Shown here: in pieces, positions 1,933 to 37,105 of the stretch
Numbering within the stretch: the stretch's first letter is position 1
Layout: the number at the start of each line of letters is the position of its first letter
Sequence record: MT939240.1
From: Enterococcus phage 9181
Strand: one strand, 5' to 3'
DNA length: 64,000 bases
Notes under the pieces: generated by a model
Told to the model about the DNA's origin: nothing
Database searches by the model: none
Seen by the model: only the letters and a program-made list of their open reading frames with translations
Position numbers and translations under genes: made by a program

Positions 1933-2469
1933 ATGCAAGAACGTTGGTGCGGAGTTTTAGGGTTGGAAAAATACTATGAAGTTTCCGACCGTGGGAGAAT
2001 ACGAACGGTCACTAGAAGAGACTCTCGTGGTCAGTTACGCCCCTCTAAATTTCTTAAGCCTTCTGGGAGATACTTGGCAACTACTTGTAGTATAGATGGA
2101 GGAAAACATTTCAGACTGTATGTACACAAAGAAGTATTGAGAGCCTTTTGCGGAGAAAGACCTGATGGAATGTTCATCAACCACATCAACGGTAATAAAC
2201 ATGATAACCGATTGGATAACCTTGAATATGTTACTCCTAAAGAGAATAATGAACATGCTATGAGGAATGGTTTGACTAGTAAAAATTCCGTCGTAAAGAT
2301 AACTCAACTAGATACAGGAATAATTTCACACCACCTATCAAAGAGAAAGGCATCCAAGTTTCTCAAAAAATACCCGTCCTATATAGCTGAAATATCCAGA
2401 GGATTGTACAAAAACACTAATCTAATAATAGAGGAGATACCATATGACAATACACTGCGTTATATATAG
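1933..2469 (+). CDS. HNH homing endonuclease (NUMOD4-like N-terminus plus HNH_3 core)
   Basis: YEVSDRGRIRTV N-terminal motif; HKEV...HINGNKHDNRLDNLEYVT HNH motif with His/Asn residues. Confidence 0.7.
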   Translation: MQERWCGVLGLEKYYEVSDRGRIRTVTRRDSRGQLRPSKFLKPSGRYLATTCSIDGGKHFRLYVHKEVLRAFCGERPDGMFINHINGNKHDNRLDNLEYVTPKENNEHAMRNGLTSKNSVVKITQLDTGIISHHLSKRKASKFLKKYPSYIAEISRGLYKNTNLIIEEIPYDNTLRYI

Positions 2470-2905
2470 CCAACCTAATTGCATCAAATGTAAGATGACC
2501 TCAGAGAAGTTACAGAAGGTTATGCGAGTGAAACATGAACACCTTTTTGACAAGGGTAATGATGACTGGTCTCAACGTAAGATTGAGAAGTTCCGTGACC
2601 AAGGTTATGGATCATTTCCAGTGGTTAGAATCTACGAAGACGAAACTGGAAGACGCCTCGATGACTGGTGTGATTTCCGTCCAGACCTTATTCAAAAATA
2701 TTCTGCAATGGCTACAGAAGGTTTACCAGAAACAAAGCAGTTAAAAGAACATCGTGTTACAGTCACTGTCACTAAGGAAGTAAATATTATTGGAGACCCT
2801 GCTGAACCTAAACATGTTGCTGACATGGCGTTGAGTAAGTTAAAAGGTGACGGACTCAGTTGGAAAGTCCAGTCGGTAGAGGTAATTCCAGAACAAGTTA
2901 ATTAA
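2444..2905 (+). CDS. NrdH-like glutaredoxin/thioredoxin-fold protein with C-terminal extension
   Basis: N-terminal VIYSQPNCIKCK (CxxC redox motif in an NrdH-like context); 153 aa. Confidence 0.5.
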   Translation: MTIHCVIYSQPNCIKCKMTSEKLQKVMRVKHEHLFDKGNDDWSQRKIEKFRDQGYGSFPVVRIYEDETGRRLDDWCDFRPDLIQKYSAMATEGLPETKQLKEHRVTVTVTKEVNIIGDPAEPKHVADMALSKLKGDGLSWKVQSVEVIPEQVN

Positions 2906-11041: not shown

Positions 11042-11389
11042 TTGATTGAACAGTGGAGATACCTATATTACCAAGGGGTACTTTCAGATACATACGAAGT
11101 AAGTTCCTTTGGCAATATACGAAACGCCAAGAGCAAGAAGCTATTAAAACCACAGTACACCGGCTATGCCCACGTACGCATCAACCACAACGGACGAGTT
11201 CAAAACATACGACTTCATCGAGCAGTTGCTTCAACCTTTCTTCGAAAACTTGACACCGACAGCGTAGTAAACCACATTAACAATGATAAAACAGATAACC
11301 GTGTATGCAACTTAGAATGGATTTCCCAAGCCATGAACGTTCGCAACTCACTAATGACTAGGGGGATTTTAAATGAAGAAGCCATCTAA
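11042..11389 (+). CDS. HNH homing endonuclease
   Basis: TTG start after AGGAGG; N-terminal YEVSSFGNIRN motif; HRAV...NHINNDKTDNRVCNLEW HNH motif. Confidence 0.65.
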   Translation: MIEQWRYLYYQGVLSDTYEVSSFGNIRNAKSKKLLKPQYTGYAHVRINHNGRVQNIRLHRAVASTFLRKLDTDSVVNHINNDKTDNRVCNLEWISQAMNVRNSLMTRGILNEEAI

Positions 11390-12754: not shown

Positions 12755-13314
12755 GATATTTAGGACTTGATGTGAGCTCGGTTGCCACGGGTGTTGCGGT
12801 GGTGGACAGAGCCCCTGATGGCTCCCTTACCAAGGTAGTAACAGACGTCATCACAACTTCCTCTAAGCAAGAGATTGGCAAGCGCCTAGTGCTCTTTGCA
12901 GAAACACTTCAAGGATTCTTCGATGAATATCAACCAGATTATGTGATCCGTGAGGAAACCATTAACAACCGTGCTTCTAACGCCATCTTATTTAAGTTCT
13001 TAGGAGTGGCTCAATTCCTAGCATGCAACAATGGTCATCAAAAGACTTACGAGTATTATCCTACAACTATCAAGAAGGAAGTCACAGGCGCTGGCAGAGC
13101 TTCTAAGGAGACTGTTGCCAAGTGTGCACAACAATACTTTAGAGAAGACTTATCGGAGCTCACAGACGACGAGACGGACGCTATTGCATCTATCTTAACA
13201 CACCTTTCCAAAACATCCATCATAACAACTGTAGAAGATTATGACAACCTACAGGAACACGACTCAGAACAACAACAACTTGTAGAGGGGTACGAGAATG
13301 GGACTATCCAATAG
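12748..13314 (+). CDS. ruvC: RuvC-like Holliday junction resolvase
   Basis: N-terminal YLGLDVSSVATGVAVVD, comparable to RuvC ILGIDPGSRVTGYGV; 188 aa. Confidence 0.75.
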   Translation: MVRYLGLDVSSVATGVAVVDRAPDGSLTKVVTDVITTSSKQEIGKRLVLFAETLQGFFDEYQPDYVIREETINNRASNAILFKFLGVAQFLACNNGHQKTYEYYPTTIKKEVTGAGRASKETVAKCAQQYFREDLSELTDDETDAIASILTHLSKTSIITTVEDYDNLQEHDSEQQQLVEGYENGTIQ

Positions 13315-13888
13315 CAAACAGATACGAATTGCAATTTCTGGAAAAAGCCGTTCAGGGAAAGATACTTTGGCTGATGCTATCAAGGCAGAATTTAAGCGTC
13401 AGGGAAAGACAGTTATCCCATTAGCTTTTGCAGATGGCATTAAAGAAATATATAAACAGAACTTCCGATATGTTAAAACCGACTGCAAACCTCGTGAAGC
13501 CTATATTACCATTGGAGAAGCCTTCCGTGCAGTAGATGAAAACGTGTGGGTTGAACGCCTTAAAGGACGTGTCGAAGAGAGCTACCAATGGGATGTAGTC
13601 ATCGTGACAGACCTTCGCAGAAAGAACGAAGAGGAATACCTAAAGGATGCTGGATTCACAACCATCTTAGTAGATTCCTCAGATGAGATTAGAATCGCCC
13701 GTGCCAAGGCTTTAGGAGAGCATTTAGAGGCTTCTAATGCAGGCGATGATGAAGTAGATTTATTAACACCTGATATAACTATCCATAATGACAACGACGT
13801 TCGAGACTGGTCAGCACCTGCTCAAAGAATCGTAGAACAAATCAGAGAGGTGGCTACCATTAATGGATACCAACGAACAAAGAATTAA
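13298..13888 (+). CDS. deoxynucleoside monophosphate kinase (P-loop)
   Basis: IAISGKSRSGKDT P-loop; 196 aa; next to other nucleotide-metabolism genes. Confidence 0.5.
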   Translation: MGLSNSKQIRIAISGKSRSGKDTLADAIKAEFKRQGKTVIPLAFADGIKEIYKQNFRYVKTDCKPREAYITIGEAFRAVDENVWVERLKGRVEESYQWDVVIVTDLRRKNEEEYLKDAGFTTILVDSSDEIRIARAKALGEHLEASNAGDDEVDLLTPDITIHNDNDVRDWSAPAQRIVEQIREVATINGYQRTKN

Positions 13889-14594
13889 ACCAAGCAAGAT
13901 TAAAGGAAATAGCCAGAACCGTGTATTAAAGGATGGAAGCGAGATTCGATATGACCTCCCCCTTTACCGCCAGATCACAGAGGCAGCTAATACACGACTT
14001 TTCTCAAAGGCTGTACAATACTTAATCGAAAGCAAACTTTATAAAGTCTTCCTACCACGGGAAGTACGAGAAGAGTTTGTAAATGACATAACCGAAATCT
14101 ATTACCGCAAGTTTGGATACTTGTCAGTGATGGATGACGCCTTGACCAATTCCTTAGCCGAATACTTCTTACATAACGACGTTAAAGTAATGCCTGACTA
14201 CACCGTTAAACGACCTGATTGTAACTTCTTTGAATATCCTTTCGAGGGACATCGAATGAGACTTCGTAATCACATGTCTCCATACCGCTTCGAAGTTCCT
14301 GTGGATACAGACTTCAACGAAATGCTCTTCAACGAAAACCTATTTTCAGATTCAACCCCAGAAGACGACTTAACACGAGTCGATGAGACCCTTGACATTA
14401 CACAAGCATTTGAATTAGCTGACTTAACAAAGTTAGAGCAAGACATCGTATGGCTTAACTCAGTGGTTGGAATGAGCCTCAGAGATATTGCTGACCTAAG
14501 CGATGAGTTTCCTAGTAAATCAGCCCTTTCATATAAGCTTAAGGAAGCTAAAGACAAGCTCAGAAAAGCTGTTGAAAAACACCAACTAAAATAA
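13863..14594 (+). CDS. sigma-70 region-4-like transcription regulator (putative phage sigma factor)
   Basis: C-terminal LEQDIVWLNSVVGMSLRDIADL...KLKEAKDKLRKA matches the sigma region 4 helix-turn-helix pattern. Confidence 0.45.
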   Translation: MDTNEQRIKPSKIKGNSQNRVLKDGSEIRYDLPLYRQITEAANTRLFSKAVQYLIESKLYKVFLPREVREEFVNDITEIYYRKFGYLSVMDDALTNSLAEYFLHNDVKVMPDYTVKRPDCNFFEYPFEGHRMRLRNHMSPYRFEVPVDTDFNEMLFNENLFSDSTPEDDLTRVDETLDITQAFELADLTKLEQDIVWLNSVVGMSLRDIADLSDEFPSKSALSYKLKEAKDKLRKAVEKHQLK

Positions 14595-14599
14595 TCTAA

Positions 14600-14628
14600 A
14601 AATCCCTTGACAAGTTCAGGGGGTTTTT
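14600..14628 (+). terminator. intrinsic terminator (ccct...aggg hairpin plus T-run) overlapping the promoter
   Basis: aatCCCTtgacaagttcAGGGggttttt. Confidence 0.55.
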
Positions 14629-14636
14629 GCTATACT
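14607..14636 (+). promoter_or_regulatory. sigma-A-type promoter (TTGACA, 18-nt spacer, TATACT)
   Basis: Near-identical copy of the 6509 promoter module. Confidence 0.6.
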
Positions 14637-14664
14637 TGTTTAAGTAGTCGAGAGGAGGAAAGAA

Positions 14665-14880
14665 ATGTACCTTGTATTTTATAAATACGGAGAAGATTTG
14701 AAACCCCACTTTTTAGGAGCTTACAACTCCTACACAGAAGCACGTAATAGTGCAATAGTTTCCGCTTCTTTTAAAACAGATACTGCCACGTTTAAAATTA
14801 TTTCAGTAGTGATTGACTTAGACTCTGAGGACAGTCCATGGAAAGACAAGAAAGAACTTGTGTGGGAGGGGCGTGATTAA
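14665..14880 (+). CDS. hypothetical protein
   Basis: GAGAGGAGGA RBS; 71 aa. Confidence 0.4.
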   Translation: MYLVFYKYGEDLKPHFLGAYNSYTEARNSAIVSASFKTDTATFKIISVVIDLDSEDSPWKDKKELVWEGRD

Positions 14881-15107
14881 TGGGTATTCTTAAAGAGTTC
14901 ATAGCTGCGTTCGTAGAAACATTCCTAGAAGCATTAATTGGTTGTGTATTCGCCATAGCAATAACCGCACTACTCATTGGATACTTCTGGCTTATGTTAT
15001 CAGTAGCTAAAAGCTTTTCATGGTTCACTACAGTAATTGTGTGTTCATTTTTAACAAGTGTTTTAGTAGCCATCCTCGGAGCACTAGTAGAAATATTTGG
15101 ATATTAA
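14880..15107 (+). CDS. small membrane protein
   Basis: ATGG overlap; two TM helices. Confidence 0.4.
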   Translation: MGILKEFIAAFVETFLEALIGCVFAIAITALLIGYFWLMLSVAKSFSWFTTVIVCSFLTSVLVAILGALVEIFGY

Positions 15108-15119
15108 AGCGGAAAGGAT

Positions 15120-15926
15120 TTGATTATGATTTTAACATTGGCAGGCGTAATCGGAGTTGGTAAATCTTCGATGACACAATTATTAGCGGACTTATTAGAC
15201 ACCGAGGCGGTGTATGAGCCCGTTGATAACAATCCATTTTTAAAGAAATTCTATGAGGACAAAAGTAAATACGGGTTCTTATTCCAGATAGACATGCTAT
15301 CTAAAAGGTTTGAAATGATTCAGACAGCCATGAGCGTTAACAATGGCATCTTGGATCGTTCCGTGTACGAGGATAGCATCTTCTTAGATCAACTCTATCA
15401 AGAAGGTCAAGTAACAGACCTTGAACAAGAGGTTTACCACAACCTATTAAACCGCATGCTGAAAGAATTGGAGCCACTTCCTAAGAAGTCTCCAGACTTA
15501 ATGATTGTTCTTAACTGCACGTTTGATGAAGAAATTAGACGTATCAATTCACGAGCTAGAGAGTTTGAAAAGGTGGAAGAAGGCACTGAGCTATATGAGT
15601 ACTTCAAACTCCATCACGAGAACTATCAGAAGTGGATTGAGAAAGACTTGAACTTCCCCAAAATAGTCTTGGACGTCACTAATAAAGATTTTGTAAATAA
15701 CCCCAAACACCAACTAGAATTGTTGACAACTATCTTGGTAAAGCTTAACGAAGTAGGTGCATTGACAACTTTAGACACGGTACGTAAACTATGTGAGATC
15801 AATTCAGTACCTTGGGACAAAGACAATGCCCAAGCTTATGCCATGTACTTGTACAACAAACACGAAGGCAAGATGCCTTTCCACGAGCTTAGCCAATTCA
15901 CTGACAACACTTCATTATATGAATAA
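15120..15926 (+). CDS. deoxynucleoside kinase (dNK family)
   Basis: P-loop LAGVIGVGKSS; LDRSVYED (the DRS motif); 268 aa. Confidence 0.75.
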   Translation: MIMILTLAGVIGVGKSSMTQLLADLLDTEAVYEPVDNNPFLKKFYEDKSKYGFLFQIDMLSKRFEMIQTAMSVNNGILDRSVYEDSIFLDQLYQEGQVTDLEQEVYHNLLNRMLKELEPLPKKSPDLMIVLNCTFDEEIRRINSRAREFEKVEEGTELYEYFKLHHENYQKWIEKDLNFPKIVLDVTNKDFVNNPKHQLELLTTILVKLNEVGALTTLDTVRKLCEINSVPWDKDNAQAYAMYLYNKHEGKMPFHELSQFTDNTSLYE

Positions 15927-15982
15927 GCGCCATTTAACAGCGCATATGCAACATTAAAATTATTGGAAGAAGGTATTTAATT

Positions 15983-16714
15983 TTGGAAAACATTACTAAA
16001 CTGTTCACTATCAACTACTACAAAAAAGGTCTATCAGGGTGGTCGAAATCCTCCTACACATTATTAACGATTGGCTTAATTATCCAAGCATTTATCGGAT
16101 TCGCTTTACCACTTGTTCAAGGTCAGCCAATCACTCTCACAGGAGTTACCGCCACTATTGCAGGGATGATAGGGTTCACTTGTACACTTGCTATTACTAA
16201 CGAGCGCTCCATTAATGGTATCCTAGGGTTTATCTCAGCACTTCTTTTAATTGGTGTTGCCACAACTACAGGAAACTATTCAGACATTATTATGCAAGGT
16301 GCATACATTATTCTATTAGACATTCCAATTATCTTCTCCAAGCGTTGGAACAATGGATTAGAACCACGTAAGATGAATGTTAAGAACATGTTCGGAACAG
16401 TCGCTTTAATGATCTTATTCTTCATCGGACTTTATCTACTTGATACAGTTATCCTACACTCCCCACAAGCTTTACTAGATGCTTCAAGCGCTATGATCGG
16501 TTTAGTCGGAGCCGTCTTATGTGTTCGAGGATTCCGTGCTCAATACTACTTCTGGACTTTTCAAGGTCTTATGTCAGTAGCGTTATGGATTCAAACAGCA
16601 ATGAATGGTCACGCCGTTTGGGTTCTTATGGTAACTTACATGTTGTACCTAGGAAACGACTTGGTTGCATTCTTAGACTCAGGTTGGTTCAAAAAGAATA
16701 AAGCAAAAGCTTAA
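15983..16714 (+). CDS. PnuC-like nucleoside/nicotinamide-riboside transporter (multi-pass membrane)
   Basis: About 7 TM segments; Trp-rich C-terminal signature (WNNG, YYFWTFQG...ALWIQ, GWF) as in PnuC. Confidence 0.45.
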   Translation: MENITKLFTINYYKKGLSGWSKSSYTLLTIGLIIQAFIGFALPLVQGQPITLTGVTATIAGMIGFTCTLAITNERSINGILGFISALLLIGVATTTGNYSDIIMQGAYIILLDIPIIFSKRWNNGLEPRKMNVKNMFGTVALMILFFIGLYLLDTVILHSPQALLDASSAMIGLVGAVLCVRGFRAQYYFWTFQGLMSVALWIQTAMNGHAVWVLMVTYMLYLGNDLVAFLDSGWFKKNKAKA

Positions 16715-16720
16715 TAACAG

Positions 16721-16750
16721 AGGCTTGGGAATTATCCCAAGTCTTTTTAA
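16721..16750 (+). terminator. intrinsic terminator (cttggga-at-tcccaag plus T-run)
   Basis: Hairpin read directly from the sequence. Confidence 0.55.
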
Positions 16751-20235: not shown

Positions 20236-20697
20236 GTGAGCACCTTTGGCAGAGTGCTTTCCTTGAAGACTAGCAATGTTAAATTTATTGGCACGAAGCC
20301 TAATCATACGTTTGGGTATACGGGTATTACACTAATTAGTGCTAATAGTAAAAGGAGAACCACCTTGCACAGAATCGTGGCAGAAACTTTTATCCCAAAG
20401 CCACCAGAGTGGAGAGAAGATTGGCATGTAAATCACATCTCAGGAGACCCTACTAATAATTCAGTTACCAACTTAGAGTGGTGCACTGCAAGTGAAAATT
20501 ATTTACATCCTAACTGTAACCGTAAACGCTCTAAAAAAGTTCGTCGGATAAGCATTGAAGACGGATCGACAGAAATTTTTCTCAATGCCTCTGTAGCGGC
20601 TAGATCAGTTGGTGGTAGGGCTTCAGAGGTTTGGCGAAAGTGTAATAAAGCCTCTAAAAAATTAGATTATATGAATTATTTTTGGGAGTGGGCTTAG
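20236..20697 (+). CDS. HNH homing endonuclease
   Basis: HRIVAETF...WHVNHISGDPTNNSVTNLEWCT HNH motif. Confidence 0.65.
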   Translation: MSTFGRVLSLKTSNVKFIGTKPNHTFGYTGITLISANSKRRTTLHRIVAETFIPKPPEWREDWHVNHISGDPTNNSVTNLEWCTASENYLHPNCNRKRSKKVRRISIEDGSTEIFLNASVAARSVGGRASEVWRKCNKASKKLDYMNYFWEWA

Positions 20698-25318: not shown

Positions 25319-26539
25319 GCCCTTAAATACTACTAACTAACGAAGCATATGAGAACATTAAGCGACCAACGGACAAGCGACGGAATAAACAGGCGCTTAT
25401 AATGCTCGTGTGTGCAATGATCTAATAAGGATACGGGAAGGCGTGTGTACTCCTTTAATAAGAGGCGTTTAAAATCCTTATAATATAGTTATGGGATAAG
25501 CTTGTGGGTTATGTAATGGATACACCTTTGACACACCCCCCCACTGATTGGCTGCCAGCAAGAAGCCCCTCACGGTAACCCTATATAATACTATATTAAA
25601 AGCCTCGCAGAACGTACGAGAAGCCTCTCTAATGTAATAGGTAAGTATATCATAATACTATTAAAAAGGTGGCAAAGTGTCTCTTTTGTAATAGTTAAAG
25701 GTAGCCCCATTTATTAGGCGTTAAGATAATCATCTGGCAATCATTTTCGGGAGGGGGCTATTTTATGCACGGGGCTTTTTGTGGTGGGCATTAGATTGGT
25801 GGGGCATAGCTTTGTCGGGGGCTTCTTATTGTGGTGGTTAAATAGTTTGCAAAGGTTTGGCTTTCCTTTGACGATACTGTTGTGATCCTTTTGAAATGGT
25901 AGTGGACTACGGACTCACACACCTAAAACACAATAGGGGTCGGGAGGTGTGGCAAAGGATCGGACACCCTACTAATCTCCCTACCATATTAATGGGATAA
26001 TCGAGGCATGACCACGCCACACACAACGCCCCATTCATGCCCTCTATAGTAAGGTGTATATGATGGGCTTCTCTTAGTTTACATAATGTACATTATACAA
26101 AGTAGTTTAATATATTAAGATAGCCTTGCCACGGCATGCATAGGGTAGCACCACACCACCACACACACGACCACGACAAGGCATGACCATCACTTCATAA
26201 TAACAACAGCACACACACCGCCCGTCACACCACCACACACCACGAGCCACGCACACAGGTGAATGACCATAGCATAACAGAACGGCAGGCACCCCGAAGG
26301 GAGGGGGTAACTTAAAATTTTTGACGCGAGCCCGTGGACACTCAGTCTCTTGGAAATTTCGGATTTTCCCAAAAGGGGTCGTCAATTTTATTTTTTCTGG
26401 ATTTCCTAAAGGGGCTCCGAAGCCTTTGCAATACCCTTACACACGAGGCGTTCACACAAGCTTTACACCTGATCCCACACTAGGCTTCACACACAAGTAA
26501 TACACACACGGAGTGAAGAAAAGGTTACACATGAGCAAT

Positions 26540-26653
26540 GCTAAACGCCGCTCTTATTATCATTCTGATGATACTTTCTAAGTGATCTTGTTGCCAACCA
26601 TCTTCCGATAAACGCCCCAATAGTTACCCACACCACTATCGTAAATACTCTCA
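26540..26653 (-). CDS. tiny hydrophobic peptide (37 aa)
   Basis: GTG start after ATAGGAGGAG on the minus strand; sequence RVFTIVVWVTIGAFIGRWL. Confidence 0.3.
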
Positions 26654-26843
26654 CAGCAAACTCCTCCTATATAAATCTAATAGCTTCTTTTACAGGCTCT
26701 GCGAACGGCAAGAACCTTGGGTCAATGTCTTCAATTTCCTTCTTAGTTAACTGGTAACCAGACTTACACCAGTAGCGTAGCTCTTCACTAGGAACCATCT
26801 TATAGTCATTTCGATCAGTGTTTACTTTAACGAGATACTGTCC

Positions 26844-27206
26844 TCAGATAATGACTTCGAAACGCTTCTCTCGATCCACTTCATAACCAACCTCCAAGGC
26901 TTTGAAAAAGGTCTTGACATTATGGTTTGATCCAAGCCATTCAGCTAGGTCTTCATCACAATCCTTGTTGTTGATAGCCTGCTCTATGCTAAAGGTGAAT
27001 CTACTAATAGATTTTTCCATCCGCTTGATAAACTCACCCACATATGGTGGCACTACTGGTTTCTCGAATGGGGCACCATCAATCTGTTCTACAACACACA
27101 AAGCATCCTCATAGGCAGCTTTCCTAGAAACGCTCTCTATATCATCCCATTCCTGTAAGTATCCAATAACGTTTTTTAACTGTCTGACTGCTTCTTGTTT
27201 GTCCAT
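26844..27206 (-). CDS. hypothetical protein, PVVP-EW family paralog
   Basis: Promoter and RBS upstream; shares the KPVVPPYVGEF motif with 31399..31830 and 32848..33402. Confidence 0.5.
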   Translation of the reverse strand: MDKQEAVRQLKNVIGYLQEWDDIESVSRKAAYEDALCVVEQIDGAPFEKPVVPPYVGEFIKRMEKSISRFTFSIEQAINNKDCDEDLAEWLGSNHNVKTFFKALEVGYEVDREKRFEVII

Positions 27207-27235
27207 CTAATTCCCCCTAATACTTTATACTCCTT

Positions 27236-27265
27236 ATTATACAGTATCAAAAGGGTTTCTGTCAA
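27236..27265 (-). promoter_or_regulatory. sigma-A-type promoter (minus strand: TTGACA, 18-nt spacer, TATAAT)
   Basis: Reverse complement: cttgacagaaacccttttgatactgtataat. Confidence 0.55.
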
Positions 27266-27298
27266 GCACAAAAAAGACACCCTTAAGGTGCCTCTTGG

Positions 27299-27544
27299 TT
27301 AGTCTAGTCCATGGTAATACTGTATTTCCTGTTGCTTGCCAATGATCACATAAAGGATATTACTGTTTGTAGTCGGCGTGATAACAGTCCCTCGATTGGA
27401 GAATTGTACAATACGGCTTTTAAACTGATTTGATACTTGGTCTGATGCCGTAGCTCCGTACAAGCTTTCCTTAACATAATAAGATAGCTTTTCCCCATCC
27501 TTGAAGACAATGGTTACCTCTCTGCACTTGTCACTTCTGCTCAT
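27299..27544 (-). CDS. hypothetical protein
   Basis: 81 aa; ATGA overlap with the upstream gene. Confidence 0.4.
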   Translation of the reverse strand: MSRSDKCREVTIVFKDGEKLSYYVKESLYGATASDQVSNQFKSRIVQFSNRGTVITPTTNSNILYVIIGKQQEIQYYHGLD

Positions 27545-27936
27545 TTAGGTTCCTCCAATTCAGTGATGTACAAGCCTGAGTCAACGGCTTTCCAAAGGTC
27601 GCTAACATCAGTGATGTAATCATCTTCCATAATCTCTTTTAGCTCATCTTCCGTCCAGTATGGCTCAATGTAGTTTTCGTAAGTCCATTGACCAGCTTCT
27701 TCTTCACTTCCAAAGGTTCCCACCACTCGGTTAGTATCCAGTATGACCACATACTTCCGAGGGCTTTCCTCATTAATCATTGGAGCGATTTTATCAGCCT
27801 TGATTACAAGTCTGTTGTGGTTAGATACAGTCGTTACTTCCACCGTTTCCCCATCCATTGAAATAAGATAGACCACAGTTCCTTTTGGATAAACGTTACC
27901 ACTATGAGTTTTAACATCCTTTACTAATACATACAT
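27541..27936 (-). CDS. hypothetical protein
   Basis: 131 aa; RBS rc GGGGGAATAT. Confidence 0.45.
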   Translation of the reverse strand: MYVLVKDVKTHSGNVYPKGTVVYLISMDGETVEVTTVSNHNRLVIKADKIAPMINEESPRKYVVILDTNRVVGTFGSEEEAGQWTYENYIEPYWTEDELKEIMEDDYITDVSDLWKAVDSGLYITELEEPK

Positions 27937-28302
27937 AAATATTCCCCCTTAAACCTCTTCGTAGTCCCACCAAATGACATCCTCATCATCTTCTAGTTGT
28001 TCACAAAGAGTTACTAATTCTTCTCGGCTAGCAACAAGTCTTTTTAGAACAACTCCATCATGTAGCTCAATAGTAAACTCAAAAAATTCTTCTTCCATAT
28101 GTCCTCCTTAGCGGCGTTGACCACACCTTATTAATCTCTCTTCGAAATAATCAGTAGCAAAATGACAAGACCTACTAACAACACTCCCAGAAATAGATCA
28201 ACAATAATTTCAAAAGTCATGTGTCGTCACCTCCGAGAGAAGCCCAGAACAAGCTTGCTGTCATCAGTAATAACACTGTGCCCATTGCTTCCGCAGCGAA
28301 TA

Positions 28303-28530
28303 TTACCATAGTCGTACCTCATGTAGTTCAATGTAGGCGATGTTAGATGGGCTCACAAAGTGGAAAGTAATGTCTCCCTCAGATAAGTCTGAAATAAGGG
28401 CTTTAACCCCAAGTTCCGCTAGGCTTTTTAAAAGGCTTTCCTTAACATCCCCAATACTCTCATCATGGGTTTCATAGGCTTCCACACCACTTGTGTATAC
28501 TACTGTTACTCCAGTGTAAGTTGCAAACAT
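28303..28530 (-). CDS. hypothetical protein
   Basis: 75 aa; RBS rc AAGGAGGACG. Confidence 0.45.
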   Translation of the reverse strand: MFATYTGVTVVYTSGVEAYETHDESIGDVKESLLKSLAELGVKALISDLSEGDITFHFVSPSNIAYIELHEVRLW

Positions 28531-28652
28531 GTAACGTCCTCCTTAAGGGTGGCGTTGACCACCGCTTTGTATAATACTAGTTTACCACCCATTATGGGAA
28601 TCTGTCAATACCTTATATAAAAAAGACGTTCTTTCGAACGCCTCTGTAAATC

Positions 28653-29423
28653 TTATTTGAATAGCTCTTTCATTTCCTTACGGATATCTTCTAAATCATT
28701 GTCGGCAAAGGTAACCTTAAGTTTGGCTTTAGTACGTTGATCCTCAATATCTTCTTCTTCCTTACGGAGCTCTAGGTATTCCTCGATAACATCTGTTGGG
28801 ATATCTTCAAGGATGTCTAAAATTTCCTGTGCTTCGTCATACTTTGATAAGTCCCTAAACCTCTCTTGACTTGATTCATTCTTAATAATAGTTTCATTAC
28901 GTCTGTGCACAAGTTTAATATACTGCTCTTTTATATAAGATGCTCCAAAATATCCATTAAGCGACTCTAATAAAACATCACACGGATTGACCTTTTTAAT
29001 GTAGGCATGGTCTCCTGCGTGGTAAAGTTCCCCTTGAGACTTGCTAGCCATAGACCCGTTGTGTATAATTTCCACTAGGTCGCCTTCTTTGAATTTTCCA
29101 CTCCAGACAACTGGTTCTACTTGCCAGTCTAAAAAGGCAGCACTATAGGTTGTGTAAAGTACATCACCAATTGATGTGGGAGTGGCACTCGTGCAAAGGT
29201 GGATGTTACCGTCCTTCTTATCACGGAAGTAATCACCAGCCTCTATCTGACTTAGTTCAAAGCACTCTGGCTCATAGGGGTACCCATTCCATAAATCATC
29301 ATCAGTAACGAACAAGTAGTCATCATCAGTGCTTGTTACAATGTATTTCTTACCTTCTGTAATTCCTCTGTGACCCTTGGTGTTTACACACCTAACAAGA
29401 TCGCCCTTTTTAAAAGTTGTCAT
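28653..29423 (-). CDS. hypothetical protein with two SH3/KOW-like FK(K/E)GDLV modules
   Basis: 256 aa; RBS rc AGAGGAGGAC. Confidence 0.5.
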   Translation of the reverse strand: MTTFKKGDLVRCVNTKGHRGITEGKKYIVTSTDDDYLFVTDDDLWNGYPYEPECFELSQIEAGDYFRDKKDGNIHLCTSATPTSIGDVLYTTYSAAFLDWQVEPVVWSGKFKEGDLVEIIHNGSMASKSQGELYHAGDHAYIKKVNPCDVLLESLNGYFGASYIKEQYIKLVHRRNETIIKNESSQERFRDLSKYDEAQEILDILEDIPTDVIEEYLELRKEEEDIEDQRTKAKLKVTFADNDLEDIRKEMKELFK

Positions 29424-29703
29424 AAAAGTCCTCCTCTAACCATTCGTAACCCCAGTCTAAGACCTCGGCAACCAACCATGTTTGAAGTCGCCAGTTCTCA
29501 ATTTCGAGGTACTCTAATTCATCTTCTATATACTTGCGTGCATGATACTTGTTCACACGCCTTTGGTAACGCTTCTCACGTTTGTAGTCCTCACGGCTTG
29601 GTTCACAGCCTTCGTACCAAAACTTAAACTTCCTCTTTGCTCTGATATAGTCTTTGTAACCCATCATCAACAAACCCTTCTGAAAGTTCTTTGCGAACAT
29701 CAT
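29410..29703 (-). CDS. hypothetical basic protein (start uncertain, may be internal Met near 29667)
   Basis: Overlaps 29624..29935 by about 80 nt in another frame. Confidence 0.3.
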   Translation of the reverse strand: MMFAKNFQKGLLMMGYKDYIRAKRKFKFWYEGCEPSREDYKREKRYQRRVNKYHARKYIEDELEYLEIENWRLQTWLVAEVLDWGYEWLEEDFYDNF

Positions 29704-29935
29704 CCCAAGAAGTTAGCACACCGTCACTGACTATACCTCCGCCACCTTCCACACCAAACTCAACGGTGCAACCAGCGGCGTTGACCACGGCTTCTAACCG
29801 ATCCTTGTCAAGAGGCTTACGCTGAGTGGGTTCCATAATCGTTCCCTGCGGTAAGCTCTCGAACGGCTTCCTCATGCTTGGTGGCAATGAAGTCAGAAGC
29901 TTCTCGGTAAGCTCTTTCGGCACGGTTCTTGGCAT
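29624..29935 (-). CDS. hypothetical protein
   Basis: 103 aa. Confidence 0.35.
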   Translation of the reverse strand: MPRTVPKELTEKLLTSLPPSMRKPFESLPQGTIMEPTQRKPLDKDRLEAVVNAAGCTVEFGVEGGGGIVSDGVLTSWDDVRKELSEGFVDDGLQRLYQSKEEV

Positions 29936-30323
29936 AGGTTAGTTGACGCTCTAGTAAGGCTGTGTATTCAGACAATGTCATGACCTCTATGGAACGCACA
30001 TCAAAGTAGCTTAACTCCTCACACTCTTTATTGATCTTGTGGACGTATCCCATACAGAAATCATATTCAGCTTGGGTAATGGCTGATGAAGGCTTTTTGA
30101 AGCTTTCGATAAGTGTTACCTCATCTGTTACTTCATTAGGGAGGTTGTTCCCGTCCAACTTCTTAAGGAATGCAATACGGCTTGCAGGGTCTCCTGCACC
30201 AACTGTAACATCTTCAATAAGGACTTCCCCATCACGGGTTTTTCCTAGGAAGTCTGCCACCCGTTCACAATAAATTACATATACAAATTGTCGATTACTC
30301 ATATAAAAACTCTCCTTCTTCAC
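29817..30323 (-). CDS. hypothetical protein
   Basis: 168 aa; RBS rc AGAAGGAGAG. Confidence 0.45.
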   Translation of the reverse strand: MKKESFYMSNRQFVYVIYCERVADFLGKTRDGEVLIEDVTVGAGDPASRIAFLKKLDGNNLPNEVTDEVTLIESFKKPSSAITQAEYDFCMGYVHKINKECEELSYFDVRSIEVMTLSEYTALLERQLTYAKNRAERAYREASDFIATKHEEAVRELTAGNDYGTHSA

Positions 30324-30567
30324 GTTTTACAAAAAAGCTCAGTACATCATCTTTGTGGATCATATCCTCAGCAAGTAAATCTAAATCCCGCTCAACAACC
30401 TCTTTTGACTCTGGGTCATAAATGCGTTCCGTAGTCCGTGTCTTTTCACGCTGAATGTGCAAGAAGGTTTTACCATTCCTGACATCCTCTAGGAATGCTC
30501 TGGCAGCGGAACCATATATCTCAAAACTCTCTCCAGAACTCTTAGTATAAATAACTATTCTGTACAT
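30295..30567 (-). CDS. hypothetical protein
   Basis: 90 aa; preceded by promoter 30598-30627 and RBS rc AAGGGGGAT. Confidence 0.45.
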   Translation of the reverse strand: MYRIVIYTKSSGESFEIYGSAARAFLEDVRNGKTFLHIQREKTRTTERIYDPESKEVVERDLDLLAEDMIHKDDVLSFFVKREEGEFLYE

Positions 30568-30597
30568 TCCAAATCCCCCTTTCGTAACTATGAATAT

Positions 30598-30627
30598 ATC
30601 TTACCATAGCTGCAGGGAAACTGTCAA
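30598..30627 (-). promoter_or_regulatory. sigma-A-type promoter (minus strand: TTGACA, 18-nt spacer, TAAGAT)
   Basis: Reverse complement: ttgacagtttccctgcagctatggtaagat. Confidence 0.5.
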
Positions 30628-30923
30628 TAACCAAAATAAAAAAACTCCATGCACAAATTGCACAGAGCTTTCCTTTAGACTTTATATGTTCTTTGTATAA
30701 GCTTTGGTAAAGGATTGTTACAAGCGCTTGGTATAGGTGTAGTTAATGGGATAGGTATTAAGCACTTATCAGTAAATGGAAAAGTGTAAGGAGCGAAGCT
30801 CCTAGCGATCTTTGATCGCTTAGAGAAGCATCTTAAAACCTCTAAAACCATTATACATCACATGGGTATCCCTTGTCAAGCATTAGAGGCTGTTTTTAAG
30901 TAATCTTAAGAAATTCTTAATAA

Positions 30924-31532
30924 TTACCTAAACGGGTTCTGAATCTTATTACCACTCTTCACTTTCCCATCATTAAACAACCCTGTTCCAACTGATTTAC
31001 CATCAATGAGTATGTCATTGGGATCGCATCCTACATTCACGTCCTCAACGCTTACCGAAACCTTCTTGCCATCCTTTACATAAGCAATTTCAAAGTCTTT
31101 ATGTGTGTGGAGTTCTAGTTCATCTAAAAGAAGCTCCATTAGCTTAGTCTGGATGCTCGGTGTCTTGGCTGGCATAGGCTCTCCAGTTACTTTTGGATTT
31201 CCAGGTAATTTTGGCAACCTAGTGAAGTTATTGTCCAGACTTTCCTTTGAAAACCATTCTTTAGCTCCTAATGGAGGTTGGAGAAGGTAAGGTAAACCTG
31301 TATTTTGTAAGTCCACCCCAACAATGGTATGCAGACCGCTGTCAAACGAACTTGTAAAATCATTATAATACAGTAAATCACCGACTTCATACTTCATACT
31401 AATTATCCTCCCGTAATTCTTTAAGAGGTAGCACCTCTGCCTCTCTTGGTAACTTGTTTGCCACAAATTTTGCCATGTCTTCATCAGTAAATAGATCAGC
31501 CTCTTGTGGGTCTCGTGTATAGGTGTAGTCAA
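30924..31532 (-). CDS. hypothetical protein
   Basis: 202 aa; overlaps the 3' end of 31399..31830 out of frame, so its true start may be an internal Met. Confidence 0.4.
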   Translation of the reverse strand: MTTPIHETHKRLIYLLMKTWQNLWQTSYQERQRCYLLKNYGRIISMKYEVGDLLYYNDFTSSFDSGLHTIVGVDLQNTGLPYLLQPPLGAKEWFSKESLDNNFTRLPKLPGNPKVTGEPMPAKTPSIQTKLMELLLDELELHTHKDFEIAYVKDGKKVSVSVEDVNVGCDPNDILIDGKSVGTGLFNDGKVKSGNKIQNPFR

Positions 31533-31830
31533 ACTTAGTGGTCATTCCTTCTGTTATAATCAATTTAGACAAGTTTACGTAGCGCCCTGCAGAATCCTTA
31601 ACAGCGTATCCCCCTTCTTCACACTCATATCCCACAATTCCCATTTTGACTAGTGTTGGGATGGCTCCGTCAGTCTCCTCTATCCATTTACCTACGGGAC
31701 TGTCTTCGTAATCTCGGCAGGCTTCCCAGATGGCAAAGTCAATGTCGTCCTTGTTCTCCTCGTACCAACTAGCAATATAAACGGGTACTACGGGTACTTG
31801 TACCATTGCTGATTTAGTCTTTAATGACAT
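31399..31830 (-). CDS. hypothetical protein, PVVP-EW family paralog
   Basis: VPVVPVYIASWYEENKDDIDFAIWEAC, similar to 32848..33402. Confidence 0.5.
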   Translation of the reverse strand: MSLKTKSAMVQVPVVPVYIASWYEENKDDIDFAIWEACRDYEDSPVGKWIEETDGAIPTLVKMGIVGYECEEGGYAVKDSAGRYVNLSKLIITEGMTTKFDYTYTRDPQEADLFTDEDMAKFVANKLPREAEVLPLKELREDN

Positions 31831-32120
31831 TATAAAGTCTCTCCTTCGTTTTCAAAATTCCCTGCTTCAATACGATCTGCTAAAATCTGCGTGAACACTA
31901 CTTCCTGACGGAGATCGAATGAGCAGAACTCTACTGCCAAGTCTCCTAATGTCTCTTCTAATTCTTCTGAGGCATATTCCATGTCGTTACTAAAGGCAAG
32001 GTCAGTCAGTAAATAAATTACTCCCGATATGTGGGTAGGTATAGTACCAACCTTCTTAAGACCTTCCTCTAAACGGTTAACGAAATCTTCCATATCATAA
32101 ATCTTTTGCACAGTGTTCAT
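31830..32120 (-). CDS. acidic hypothetical protein
   Basis: 96 aa; RBS rc GGGGGAAGATG. Confidence 0.4.
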   Translation of the reverse strand: MNTVQKIYDMEDFVNRLEEGLKKVGTIPTHISGVIYLLTDLAFSNDMEYASEELEETLGDLAVEFCSFDLRQEVVFTQILADRIEAGNFENEGETL

Positions 32121-32444
32121 ACATCTTCCCCCTACTTTTTAAATAGTTCCTTGTGGGCATTTCTTTCGTTGAGCTCGTTCTCAAGAAGTTCAATCGCCTT
32201 GTTGAGACCTTTTAACTCATCTAGCGTGCAATAGATATTTCTATAGGCTTGAAGGTGATTAATTACTTTCCTTAAAGATACTCTCATTAAACCATCCCCT
32301 CATAACTGACTATTATTGAGTAGTAAGTGTACAACCCAGAAACAGAAGTTGAGAAATGGACTTGTACGCCTTCTTTATTAGCCGTTACCTTGTTTAACCA
32401 TTTTTCTACCTCGTACAAACTAGAACTTTCGTAGGTTAAAAATT

Positions 32445-32648
32445 TCACTCAGCAACATCTCCCATCTTCTCTGTATAAGACTGCTTTCGGATGATATCCT
32501 CAGCTAAGTTCTCTGCAACTGTCTGCAAGCTTTTCTCAAAGTATCCATACCCAAATTCAACAAGTAGATGGGAGTAAATAGCTCCAGTTAGCTGTTCCTT
32601 GTTTATACATATAGTCGATTCCTGTTTATTCATCCGCTTCCTCCTCAA
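32445..32648 (-). CDS. hypothetical protein
   Basis: 67 aa; shares a 26-bp ribosome-binding/start region with 32848..33402. Confidence 0.4.
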   Translation of the reverse strand: MRRKRMNKQESTICINKEQLTGAIYSHLLVEFGYGYFEKSLQTVAENLAEDIIRKQSYTEKMGDVAE

Positions 32649-32851
32649 TCGTATTCAGCATCGCCTAGCTCAATATCATGTCCACAGTTCTGGCACGTAA
32701 TTGCTCCAAAATTTCCGTAGTAAAGTTCACCTTCACCAAAAGCACCAGCGATTTTCTTCCAGTCTATTTCGATATGCTCGTCACATCTTGGGCAATCAAA
32801 GGAAATATAACTTGGTGTAGAGCAAATAGTGTAATCTGCTTTGCCACTCAT
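32645..32851 (-). CDS. zinc-ribbon protein (CPRC...CQNC)
   Basis: Two CxxC pairs; 68 aa. Confidence 0.45.
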   Translation of the reverse strand: MSGKADYTICSTPSYISFDCPRCDEHIEIDWKKIAGAFGEGELYYGNFGAITCQNCGHDIELGDAEYD

Positions 32852-33402
32852 ACTTTCTCTACGCTCCCATCAACCAACGTAGCGACTGCCTCGGCTTTTG
32901 TGCGGTCATCAAAAACAAATACATCATCATAAAATTTATATGCGGCTCCGTCTGCTTCAAGCGAATAAAGTGAAACCCAAGAGCTAAAATAATAATCGTT
33001 AGGTAGCTTAACCACCCACCGCGGCTCTTTCTCGACTTCGTAGCCGTCTTTCATGCGGATGAGGGTTTCGATTGGATTGTTTTCGGATTGTTGAATCCAA
33101 TTCAACATCCCTTGCTCAGCAGAACCATAAGAATCTACACACAATTCCCAAATAAGAAATTCTAACTCATCTTTATTCTCTTCAAACCACTCCGCCACAA
33201 ACTTCGGCACCACTGGCTTCTGTGGTTCGTCCAACTGTTTTGCTAGCTTAAGAGCGTGGTTATATGATTCGAATTTTGATCTCCAGAATCCCTCGCTTAC
33301 ACCTTCTTTAATGGCTCTCCACGCATTTTCCTCAAGCTCTTCTAATTTCTTAATAAATTCCTGTTTATTCATCCGCTTCCTCCCATGATTCAATGATTTC
33401 AA
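32848..33402 (-). CDS. hypothetical protein, PVVP-EW family paralog
   Basis: KPVVPKFVAEWFEENKDELEFLIWELC; 184 aa. Confidence 0.5.
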   Translation of the reverse strand: MKSLNHGRKRMNKQEFIKKLEELEENAWRAIKEGVSEGFWRSKFESYNHALKLAKQLDEPQKPVVPKFVAEWFEENKDELEFLIWELCVDSYGSAEQGMLNWIQQSENNPIETLIRMKDGYEVEKEPRWVVKLPNDYYFSSWVSLYSLEADGAAYKFYDDVFVFDDRTKAEAVATLVDGSVEKV

Positions 33403-33574
33403 TAAATAATTGGTTATCTAACGCCATTACAAGCGTGACATCGTAAAACCAGTATTTCAAAGGTAAGTTCTGTGAGATATCCATTACTTTTCCTGTAAAA
33501 ATGTTCTTGTTTTGGTAACGAATAATCACCGTTTCAACGTCGTTCAATACGGCTAACAGTGCTCCTAAGGTCAT
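33365..33574 (-). CDS. hypothetical protein
   Basis: 69 aa. Confidence 0.35.
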   Translation of the reverse strand: MTLGALLAVLNDVETVIIRYQNKNIFTGKVMDISQNLPLKYWFYDVTLVMALDNQLFIEIIESWEEADE

Positions 33575-33629
33575 GACTCGTCCTCCTATACTTTTAGTAA
33601 TTCAATAATTACTGGTTTCTTTCTATATT

Positions 33630-33911
33630 TCATCCTTCTGCCACCTCTTTCTGATTAACATCTTTCAAGGCTTCTACCTTCTTGGCTACTAAGTAGTACT
33701 GTCGTAGACTTACAATACAACTTCTTATAAATATGCCTACTAAGCATAGTGAGGCTATTCCTATTATGGCTATCACAAGTATAGCTATTGCTACTGCTAA
33801 GAAGTGAACTTTAATAATCAGTGAGAATACTGCTAAAACAACAACGGTCATTAATAAGTACTGAGCAACTACTCTAATAGACCACCAGACAGTTTTAATT
33901 AATGGCTTCAT
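33630..33911 (-). CDS. membrane protein (2-3 TM helices)
   Basis: 93 aa, hydrophobic. Confidence 0.4.
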   Translation of the reverse strand: MKPLIKTVWWSIRVVAQYLLMTVVVLAVFSLIIKVHFLAVAIAILVIAIIGIASLCLVGIFIRSCIVSLRQYYLVAKKVEALKDVNQKEVAEG

Positions 33912-34096
33912 ATGGGCTCCTTAATTAGTCTAATTTCTTTTGGTTGATAACCCCTATTAGTAAAGCATTTTTGAATAATAACTAAAGACTTGTAGTCAAA
34001 CGGCACATCATACATAACACGTTCCCACTCTCCGTTTGGCTTACGTACTTCAATACTGTAAACGAACTCATGTCTCATCTGCTTCCTCCACATCAA
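33908..34096 (-). CDS. hypothetical protein
   Basis: 62 aa; ATGA overlap. Confidence 0.35.
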   Translation of the reverse strand: MMWRKQMRHEFVYSIEVRKPNGEWERVMYDVPFDYKSLVIIQKCFTNRGYQPKEIRLIKEPI

Positions 34097-34307
34097 ATTC
34101 TGCTCCCTCTACCTCGGTAAGGTCTAACAATATCTCGGTAAACTCTTTCATAGGAACTCCCATGCGGTGTGCAATTACTTCTGCAATAAACGATAGGTAA
34201 ACGATTGAGTCGACGTCTTCTAAGTCTTTGCTACGTTTAACATGATGAACACCTTGATCATCCTTTACAATAATAAACTCAGCAACAACCTCTTCTTTCT
34301 TAACCAT
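34068..34307 (-). CDS. acidic hypothetical protein
   Basis: RBS rc AAGGAGGTAG; 79 aa. Confidence 0.4.
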   Translation of the reverse strand: MVKKEEVVAEFIIVKDDQGVHHVKRSKDLEDVDSIVYLSFIAEVIAHRMGVPMKEFTEILLDLTEVEGAEFDVEEADET

Positions 34308-34327
34308 TGGCTACCTCCTTTATATAG

Positions 34328-34543
34328 TTATTTGTCAAGCATGTACCACTCCATCCACTCGATAGCTGAGGTAGCTTCTGCCGATTCCTCTTCGATCTCT
34401 CTATCAAGACGTGCCATCAATCCAGCCCTTACCTTTGTGTGAAGATGGTTGTCGATGGAGACATCAGCCAACTGTTTTCTCAGTTGACCAATGTTTGCCA
34501 CGGCTTTCAAGTAGGCTGTTTGAGCCTCGTATAATTCTTCCAC
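34328..34543 (-). CDS. hypothetical coiled-coil protein
   Basis: RBS rc AAGGAGGACA; 71 aa. Confidence 0.4.
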   Translation of the reverse strand: MEELYEAQTAYLKAVANIGQLRKQLADVSIDNHLHTKVRAGLMARLDREIEEESAEATSAIEWMEWYMLDK

Positions 34544-34632
34544 AGAGTGTCCTCCTTAAATAGTTACTAAGCCATTGTTACTTAGAAATTGGTTACGAAT
34601 CTTCTTAATAAGTTCTTTCATATGCTTCCTCC

Positions 34633-35097: not shown

Positions 35098-35132
35098 TTA
35101 AATCACTCCTTAATTGGTTTATAACATAGTTC

Positions 35133-35161
35133 ATTATACCATATACACAGGTATTTGTAAA
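35133..35161 (-). promoter_or_regulatory. sigma-A-type promoter (minus strand: TTTACA, 17-nt spacer, TATAAT, conserved GTGTATATGG spacer end)
   Basis: Reverse complement: tttacaaatacctgtgtatatggtataat. Confidence 0.55.
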
Positions 35162-35176
35162 GGTCTTTTTGAAACT

Positions 35177-36048: not shown

Positions 36049-36077
36049 GATTGTTACCTCCTCAATAATCTACCGTA

Positions 36078-36107
36078 ATCATACCATATACACTAAATAT
36101 CTGTCAA
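36078..36107 (-). promoter_or_regulatory. sigma-A-type promoter (minus strand: TTGACA, 18-nt spacer, TATGAT)
   Basis: Reverse complement: ttgacagatatttagtgtatatggtatgat. Confidence 0.55.
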
Positions 36108-37103: not shown

Positions 37104-37105
37104 TT

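Follow-up and report, generated by a model that had tools for sequence, protein, structure and literature searches.

Transporters of the Pnu family are typically encoded together with a kinase that traps their substrate (PMC5749112). The best mechanistic model is PnuT of Shewanella woodyi, which moves thiamine down its gradient with no ion coupling and does not accept phosphorylated forms (PMC5749112). That study and PMC7749635 describe Pnu subfamilies that have come to carry thiamine or riboflavin. The ligand motif of the family, WxxW(x)3[D/N], is located in transmembrane helix (TM) 6; its D/N residue contacts the ligand in PnuC, binding is lost in the D166A mutant of PnuT, and a role as a gate is defined for the tryptophans with which TM3 and TM7 end on the cytoplasmic side (PMC5749112). 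In phages of Enterobacteriaceae, the NARP3 module (Bas30_87 and Bas30_86) places a PnuC-like nicotinamide riboside (NR) importer beside a NadR-like kinase/adenylyltransferase and rebuilds nicotinamide adenine dinucleotide (NAD+) against the Sir2-HerA defence, as described in a 2026 paper (PMC13464706). Finally, a deoxynucleoside-transporting class, PnuN, was predicted for Lactobacillus homologues of PnuC (Rodionov and Gelfand, 2005, as cited in PMC7749635). Here we describe a pair of adjacent genes, encoding a deoxynucleoside kinase (dNK) and a PnuC-like membrane protein, in a stretch of 64,000 nucleotides from Enterococcus phage 9181 (MT939240.1), which we call the window (Table 1).

The two genes form a cassette that is common in Lactobacillales phages. 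It varies the known design of a Pnu protein with a trapping kinase by a different kinase family, a re-tuned ligand motif, and a kinase tail that tracks the pairing. We read it, with a probability of about 0.6, as a Pnu-family facilitator and a trapping dNK for deoxynucleosides. Import followed by phosphorylation is the best-supported explanation because a dNK adjoins the transporter gene across lineages, the ligand motif is altered, and a partner for NAD+ salvage is absent. These features are observed, as are the families and folds of both proteins and the link between kinase tail and adjacency; the substrate, the net direction of flux, the operon structure, and any physical contact between kinase and channel are inferred. 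An earlier examination of the sequence alone (the original prediction) had proposed the same route, which stands with a probable rather than an observed substrate. The three open reading frames (ORFs) it listed, 13298-13888, 15120-15926, and 15983-16714, are all present on the plus strand, and their assignment to a deoxynucleoside monophosphate (dNMP) kinase, a dNK, and a PnuC-like protein is borne out by Pfam, PHROG, and fold matches. The idea of a deoxynucleoside transporter is itself anticipated by the PnuN prediction, in the form in which PMC7749635 cites it, and by some GenBank annotations.

The first gene of the pair encodes a deoxynucleoside kinase by family and fold. Its likelier start is the ATG at 15126, preceded by the ribosome-binding site GGAAAGGA; the gene call on a 99%-identical contig begins there too. 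The kinase domain extends to approximately position 15734 and carries the P-loop (G9-x-x-G-x-G-K15-S), the catalytic glutamate E33 (YEPV), the base-binding glutamine Q56, the D79-R80-S81 motif, and an arginine-rich lid (R140, R141, R145, and R147); all of these are kept across 20 homologues. Sequence matches in the PDB are to deoxyadenosine and deoxyguanosine kinases (dAK/dGK) at 1e-19 to 9e-23. The structural model has a predicted local distance difference test score (pLDDT) of 89, and its best fold matches, with probability 1.0, are the Giardia dAK 8PUU, the M. mycoides dAK 2JAQ, and human dGK and deoxycytidine kinase (dCK). The phage enzyme resembles these bacterial and mitochondrial-type kinases and Lactobacillus dAK/dGK in the P-loop, Glu, Gln, DRS motif, lid, and fold (target-normalised TM-score up to 0.88). 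Unlike the solved and cellular dNKs, which end at ca. 190-240 residues, it adds a helical domain of ∼60 residues. Phosphorylation of deoxynucleosides by this kinase is predicted.

The second gene encodes a Pnu-fold protein. It matches Pfam PF04973 NMN_transporter at 9e-23 (81.6 bits, cut-off 27.3) and PHROG 1880 at 8e-61. A single-sequence comparison with the solved PnuC structure 4QTN gave E = 0.0027, and a profile of 35 clade members gave 2.3e-20. The AlphaFold model (pLDDT 92.2, predicted TM-score 0.89) contains eight helices, an extra N-terminal one and a seven-helix core, and not the seven TMs counted in the original prediction, which had also named a Foldseek comparison with PnuC structures as a check. 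In a Foldseek comparison with the PDB, the sole significant match was 4QTN (probability 1.0, TM-score 0.73-0.76; the next had E ∼ 1), and it spanned the whole length of the model. The lack of PnuC-fold similarity that would have refuted the original prediction was thus not observed. The gate tryptophans W122 and W235 do not vary within the clade, and the alignment places them on the tryptophans that close TM3 and TM7 of PnuC on the cytoplasmic side. As a small polytopic membrane protein, it could instead have a role other than transport, such as holin-like lysis, superinfection exclusion, or anchoring of replication proteins; the PnuC-like gene abuts the lysis cassette in phage KSY1 and contig P0052, and in one lineage it lies between the terminase and portal genes. 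Such a role is highly improbable, as the match to PnuC covers the whole model and the full Pnu core with both tryptophans is conserved at 42-99% identity in phages and bacterial chromosomes. The holin variant was rejected because a canonical lysis cassette of holin, XhlA, and amidase (Phage_holin_1, XhlA, and Amidase_2) is present elsewhere in the genome of a 93%-identical relative.

The position corresponding to the ligand motif differs from that of PnuC. We used the motif definitions of the PnuT paper (PMC5749112) and tabulated 35 sequences. The D/N position is occupied by glycine (serine or alanine in a few) in all 33 clade members, and the first tryptophan is replaced by tyrosine in 32 of the 33, the remaining one (L029) having threonine. 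Hence WxxW(x)3[D/N] is absent from the clade, which has YxxWxxQG instead, and is present in 4QTN and in a distant PnuC-like protein of Vibrio phage ICP1, which retains WVCWIIVN. Directly upstream of the ICP1 gene (L042 2798-4558, MW794143.1) is a gene for a 346-residue protein combining nicotinamide mononucleotide (NMN) adenylyltransferase (NMNAT; CTP_transf_like) and AAA_28 (ribosylnicotinamide kinase-type) domains; both genes are labelled 'hypothetical', and judging from their domains they look like a NARP3-type pair for NAD+ salvage. As ICP1 keeps the motif together with a NadR-type neighbour and the clade has neither, the state of the motif and the partner kinase change together.

Since NARP3 is proven to import NR, the same function had to be excluded here by context and motif. 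A phage importer of NR could raise NAD+, e.g. against NAD+-depleting defences, by way of the host NadR/NMNAT or of the neighbouring kinase. Such a function is consistent with the score of the protein against TIGR01528, an equivalog model for the nicotinamide riboside transporter PnuC (63.7 bits, cut-off 42.45), with the NR bound by its sole solved relative (4QTN), with NARP3 as a phage precedent (PMC13464706), and with the database names of the protein, most of which are NMN/NR transporter. We nevertheless consider it unlikely. We scanned all remaining sizeable ORFs of the window and the 8 kb outside it, the latter taken from phage EH93P2, and found no NMNAT, NadR, NAMPT, or Nudix domains (CTP_transf_like, AAA_28, NAPRTase). 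Neither is there a NadR/NMNAT neighbour at ∼30 clade members, of which ∼12 were scanned with Pfam and the rest assessed by annotation or seed tblastn. The motif D/N and the first tryptophan are replaced clade-wide, while ICP1 retains both; the neighbouring kinase has all dNK motifs and the dAK/dGK/dCK fold. Rfam found no NAD+-II ('pnuC motif') riboswitch in the window or upstream of six cellular homologues; NadR, NrtR, and NiaR operator sites were not searched for. Phages of Salmonella and Escherichia, the hosts of NARP3, are missing from the tblastn matches of the transporter.

With the YxxWxxQG motif, no NadR/NMNAT partner, and no matches in those phages, membership in NARP3 was rejected. 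Still, the two systems have much in common: both are phage-borne two-gene modules that encode a Pnu-fold facilitator beside a trapping kinase and would boost a nucleotide-type pool, and the protein shares with PnuC the 3+1+3 helix core, the extra N-terminal helix, and both gate tryptophans. They differ in the partner, which here is of the dNK family with an extra C-terminal domain and not a NadR-type ribosylnicotinamide kinase plus NMNAT; in the motif; in sequence, with a low similarity to PnuC (21% identity in the fold alignment); in the hosts, Lactobacillales as opposed to Enterobacteriaceae; and in the predicted product, dNMP for DNA synthesis rather than NAD+. PnuT shares with the proposed system facilitated diffusion, exclusion of phosphorylated forms, and trapping by a co-localised kinase. 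By contrast, it retains the motif aspartate where the phage clade has glycine, and its substrate and partner kinase are different.

The original prediction regarded a transporter coupled to a dNK as uncommon in phages. This is not the case: tblastn with the transporter yielded PnuC-like proteins in 117 phage records, with Enterococcus, Lactobacillus, Weissella, Lactococcus, and Vibrio hosts, and tblastn with the kinase yielded related dNKs in 131, mainly from Enterococcus and Lactobacillus phages. A match of the transporter in a Klebsiella phage (H54, E = 5e-6) coincides in position with an annotated dNMP kinase and with a short ORF; it was considered unreliable and was not used. In at least ten phage lineages, a dNK gene is beside or near the PnuC-like gene, in either order, and the neighbours in these lineages are dNK, NrdH/glutaredoxin, NrdD/NrdG, ThyA, and nucleoside deoxyribosyltransferase. 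The two genes are directly adjacent in the window and in EH93P2, and they also adjoin in A2-type Enterococcus myophages, Lactococcus podophage KSY1, and P0194, a phage with Pol III and gyrase. Schiekvirus phage 113 has the order NrdD, vsr-like, dNK, PnuC-like, NrdH, with ThyA and NrdG close by; Denvervirus 9183 and nattely/VFW have a run of LOG-like, nucleoside 2-deoxyribosyltransferase, dNK, PnuC-like, and NrdH genes; and the 41-kb contig P0052 has glutaredoxin, dNK, and PnuC-like. Within the phage family of the window, the P0014 and P0179 lineages carry the pair in reversed order and at another location (PolA, x, PnuC-like, [HNH], dNK, x, ThyA). In some phage records, the genes are already labelled 'NrdR-regulated deoxyribonucleotide transporter, PnuC-like' and 'deoxyadenosine/deoxyguanosine kinase'; the former, a SEED name, is borne by several close phage homologues in GenBank and UniRef. 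The names 'nicotinamide mononucleotide transporter', 'thymidylate kinase', and 'NADH dehydrogenase subunit 10', also used for these genes, are probably misleading.

The kinase tail (residues ∼206-268) is present in every PnuC-adjacent phage dNK examined and absent from every unpaired one, and it appears not to have been described. In tblastn searches of phages, the adjacent kinases align through residue 262-267, and the others stop at approximately residue 216. The adjacent ones have lengths of 268-287 residues (as ORFs), those of A2-type phages and related database clusters 264-266, and the unpaired ones 207-246. The tail of ∼60 residues is homologous in all adjacent kinases, even where the kinase domains share 43% identity, and follows the pattern KL.EVGAL...C.LN...YN...G..P[FY]H[EN]L[SA]..[FY]DN, with invariant Y245, N246, and D262. 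It is the most confident part of the AlphaFold model (pLDDT 92-97), a bundle of three to four short helices; bacterial dAK structures cover ∼205 aligned columns and leave it unmatched. A search with the tail alone among 1.84 billion representative proteins returned four matches, mostly short fragments, and no detectable relatives beyond its own phage clade; therefore, a function cannot be transferred from another family.

All 25 records listed in both phage tables follow the association, 11 being adjacent and tailed and 14 distant and untailed. It was then checked on three further lineages: two more tailed kinases each have a PnuC-like neighbour, and an untailed kinase of 233 residues, situated in the gene order of the window (RuvC, dNMP kinase, a 242-residue protein, dNK), is not followed by a transporter. 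All tailed kinases belong to a single clade, within which the untailed kinase of IME-EFm5 is nested (99 of 100 bootstraps). The latter enzyme has 231 residues and is 75% identical to the kinase domain of the window, and the whole 42-kb genome of IME-EFm5 contains no PnuC-like gene. Tentatively, the tail could be a docking module, an attractive role in which it would keep the kinase where the Pnu channel opens to the cytoplasm and would join uptake and phosphorylation into one physical machine.

Besides the TIGR01528 score, several observations weigh against a deoxynucleoside cassette or its docked form. The cases of adjacency are not independent, as the two genes seem to have travelled together, whether by inheritance or by transfer; the association of the tail therefore comes down to about one gain and one loss. 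On the transporter side, paired and unpaired copies differ at a single conservative I/L position, which lends docking no support. In L. plantarum and L. brevis phages and in several metagenomic lineages, the transporter has no adjacent dNK, and the six nearest bacterial homologues have neither a dNK nor an nrd neighbour. Boxes for NrdR (ACACWAWATWTWGTGT, up to 3 mismatches) are represented in the window by 2 weak matches against 6.2 expected, neither of them near the transporter gene; within 500 bp upstream of the bacterial homologues, none was found in five of six, and the sixth had one weak match with 3 mismatches. Thus, the words 'NrdR-regulated' in the SEED name are not applicable to this gene; a phage gene need not retain host regulation. 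PnuN is like the phage protein in family, host order, predicted substrate class, and the genomic tie to deoxyribonucleotide metabolism, but is defined by NrdR operators, of which the window has none and the upstream regions of the nearest cellular homologues nothing above chance. Rfam found no riboswitch upstream of the transporter gene in the window or at the six bacterial loci, and hence there is no regulatory clue to the ligand. We found no transport or kinase assay for any clade member in the literature, and no experimental work on PnuN, predicted in 2005, or on the phage pair.

Some of these observations would also fit a Pnu-type facilitator for another molecule, such as ribonucleosides, a modified or non-canonical nucleoside, a nucleobase, or another vitamin, with the adjacent kinase reflecting general clustering. 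Pnu subfamilies have diverged elsewhere to thiamine and riboflavin; the altered TM6 motif indicates that the ligand is not NR and leaves it otherwise unspecified; many clade members, including all bacterial ones, lack an adjacent dNK; and the deoxyribosyltransferase and LOG-like neighbours act on the glycosidic bond of varied nucleosides and nucleotides. On the other hand, the association with the kinase tail argues that kinase and channel are functionally tied, Pnu genes characteristically adjoin a kinase of their own substrate (PMC5749112), the recurrent neighbours (NrdH, NrdD/NrdG, ThyA, deoxyribosyltransferase) are specific to deoxyribonucleotide metabolism, and Rfam found no thiamine pyrophosphate or flavin mononucleotide riboswitch near the transporter gene. 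We regard another substrate as a minor possibility, somewhat less improbable than NR.

In the deoxynucleoside cassette that we favour, the membrane protein would admit unphosphorylated deoxynucleosides down their gradient into the infected cell, by facilitated diffusion as shown for PnuT. The phage dNK would convert them to dNMPs, which the channel is proposed not to carry, so that uptake would become one-way (metabolic trapping). The dNMP-kinase-like enzyme of the phage and the nucleoside-diphosphate kinase activity of the host would then yield deoxynucleoside triphosphates (dNTPs) for the phage family-A polymerase. Such a route would suit the phage, as the scan described above found neither a ribonucleotide reductase nor a thymidylate synthase. 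The known phage routes to dNTPs are the breakdown of host DNA and ribonucleotide reduction. If our reading is correct, import and trapping would add a third source, fed by deoxynucleosides from outside the cell; it would matter particularly in DNA-rich habitats (gut, food fermentations, sewage) and for phages that lack ribonucleotide reductase and thymidylate synthase. If the pair is also docked, it would be a phage-built deoxynucleoside device resembling group translocation, shared as a two-gene cassette by phages of lactic acid bacteria that are otherwise unrelated. A Pnu facilitator would then for the first time be known to be physically linked to the kinase that traps its substrate, and the long-predicted PnuN substrate class would for the first time be open to experiment. 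More generally, much of the conflict between phage and host centres on nucleotide pools, where dNTP-depleting defences, NAD+ depletion, and NARP pathways also act. With only two proteins, the cassette lends itself to a test of the PnuN prediction and could help to show how a Pnu binding site is re-tuned from WxxW(x)3[D/N] to YxxWxxQG; for the question of whether facilitators contact their trapping kinases, the tail provides a natural experiment.

The placement of promoter-like sites and of a terminator-like hairpin suggests that two small ORFs, the dNK gene, and the transporter gene probably form one transcription unit (Table 1). The promoter-like site at its start, 14607, and one at 16759 are the two top-scoring ones in the region of 12.7-17.6 kb, each with 11 of 12 matches. 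The second small ORF is strongly hydrophobic, is also called on the 99%-identical contig L038, and may encode a small membrane partner of the pair or an unrelated protein.

The dNMP-kinase-like gene, which the original prediction had joined with the pair into a cluster of three, is not part of the conserved unit. It matches PHROG 139 'deoxynucleoside monophosphate kinase' at 4e-35, Pfam PF21448 DNMK at 38.6 bits (cut-off 27.1), and P-mevalo_kinase at 45.5 bits (cut-off 33.8); a sequence search of solved structures gave nothing significant. The enzyme would perform the next step of the pathway. However, its gene is linked to RuvC and remains there in the P0014 and P0179 lineages, where the pair has relocated, so that the unit is the pair and not the trio; in the window, it is set off from the pair by a sigma-like ORF and by the promoter-like site, which lies downstream of it. 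A cluster of three genes was therefore rejected. The original prediction had further included an NrdH-like redoxin at 2444. The CxxC motif (CIKC) and a weak similarity to NrdH and thioredoxin are present (PHROG 22 at 1.5e-10; NrdH structures at E ∼ 0.07-0.1; no match in a Pfam scan), but the gene is 11 kb away from the pair and outside the unit in Enterococcus phage 9181. In other phages, genes of the NrdH type lie beside the pair.

Table 1. Features of the window discussed in the text.
Feature	Position	Strand	Basis or remark
Thioredoxin-fold protein, CIKC motif	2444..2905	+	N-terminal half weakly NrdH-like; not adjoining the pair
dNMP-kinase-like P-loop kinase, 196 aa	13298..13888	+	Walker A; PHROG 139, Pfam
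Promoter-like site TTGACA-18-TATACT with TG, 11/12 matches	14607..14636	+	Consensus match only
Small ORF, 71 aa; first gene of the predicted unit	14665..14880	+	No family match
Small hydrophobic ORF, 75 aa, probably a membrane protein	14880..15107	+	Directly 5' of the kinase; no family match
Deoxynucleoside kinase (dNK), 268 aa by ORF finder (TTG 15120)	15126..15926	+	Pfam dNK 1.7e-38
dNK C-terminal tail, residues ∼206-268, conserved helical domain	15735..15923	+	Alignment, AlphaFold model
Pnu-family (PnuC-like, predicted 'PnuN'-type) facilitator, 243 aa, 8 predicted TM helices	15983..16714	+	
TM6 ligand-motif position Y188-Y-F-W191-T-F-Q194-G195 (PnuC: W-A-L-W-I-V-V-N)	16544..16567	+	Profile alignment to 4QTN
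Terminator-like hairpin, 12-bp stem, T-rich tail	16719..16746	+	Consensus match only; 5 bases past the transporter stop codon
dUTPase domain protein, 273 aa	37106..37924	-	Pfam dUTPase 9.5e-27; placed by motif

The window is ∼93% identical to the 72-kb Enterococcus hirae phages EH93P2 and EH802P1, in which nearly all genes are labelled 'hypothetical'. The pair belongs to a replication module that comprises an RNA ligase, HNH endonucleases, the thioredoxin-fold protein, DnaC- and DnaB-like proteins, a Toprim primase, the family-A polymerase, a Cas4-like nuclease, RuvC, the dNMP kinase, and a sigma-like protein of 243 residues, followed by the dNK and PnuC-like genes. The sigma-like protein (13863-14594, plus strand) matches PHROG 14385, and its C-terminal ∼80 residues are weakly similar to sigma-70 region 4 (E ∼ 5e-4 to 3e-3), so it may be a phage sigma-like factor; its position is kept in the relatives L038 and L062. 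The only other enzyme of nucleotide metabolism found in the phage is the dUTPase, in which the N-terminal domain is followed by ∼120 residues with no family match.

Homing endonucleases of the HNH/NUMOD type are dotted across the replication module, at 1933-2469, 11042-11389, and 20236-20697 in the window, at ∼44.1-44.7 kb in OP172805.1, and at 6701-7174 in contigs L045-L047. In the P0014 lineage, an HNH endonuclease is inserted between the PnuC-like and dNK genes. In EH93P2, ∼340 additional bases and an annotated 'DNA endonuclease' lie inside the interval that corresponds to 13298-16714, and the spacing from dNK to the PnuC-like gene is ∼535 bp, compared with 57 bp in the window. The family-A polymerase of L045 and L047 (2456-5302) is divided into two ORFs (∼533-553 and 330 residues, with a gap of ∼250 bp), and in the near-identical contig L046 (2708-5302) it is a single ORF of 864 residues; the two-ORF form may be a split polymerase or contain an intervening element. 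The replication and structural modules of the window are separated, at ∼26000-38500, by a series of small ORFs on the minus strand in which the GC skew is reversed; three of them are DUF1642 proteins, and most have no family match.

Among the homologues of the pair, paired transporters fall into two groups of the tree, with unpaired and bacterial ones in between (neighbour-joining, no bootstrap). Lactobacillus phages with a non-adjacent PnuC-like gene encode a dNK elsewhere in the genome. The nearest bacterial homologues, from Companilactobacillus, Pediococcus, Lactobacillus, and Fructobacillus, are stand-alone genes, one of them at the end of a prophage, and chromosomal Lactobacillus homologues have ∼41% identity to the transporter. 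On the chromosome of Lactobacillus sp. ESL0677 (L043 1304-5714), the homologue (41%) lies just past a prophage lysis cassette (XkdX, holin, GH25 lysin), a position typical of prophage cargo genes. In the ∼59-kb phage contig L049 (4049-8534), the PnuC-like gene lies between the terminase (GpA_ATPase) region and the portal, far from genes of nucleotide metabolism. In phage 9183 (L002 2781-3964), the LOG/'lysine decarboxylase' (SLOG) protein and the deoxyribosyltransferase head the five-gene deoxynucleoside-handling run, which includes a tailed dNK. Two Pediococcus loci have matches to small RNAs near the PnuC-like gene: one upstream of it (L034 2121-2212), and rli28-like and RatA-like ones just downstream (L035 6826-7144), RatA being a type I antitoxin RNA.

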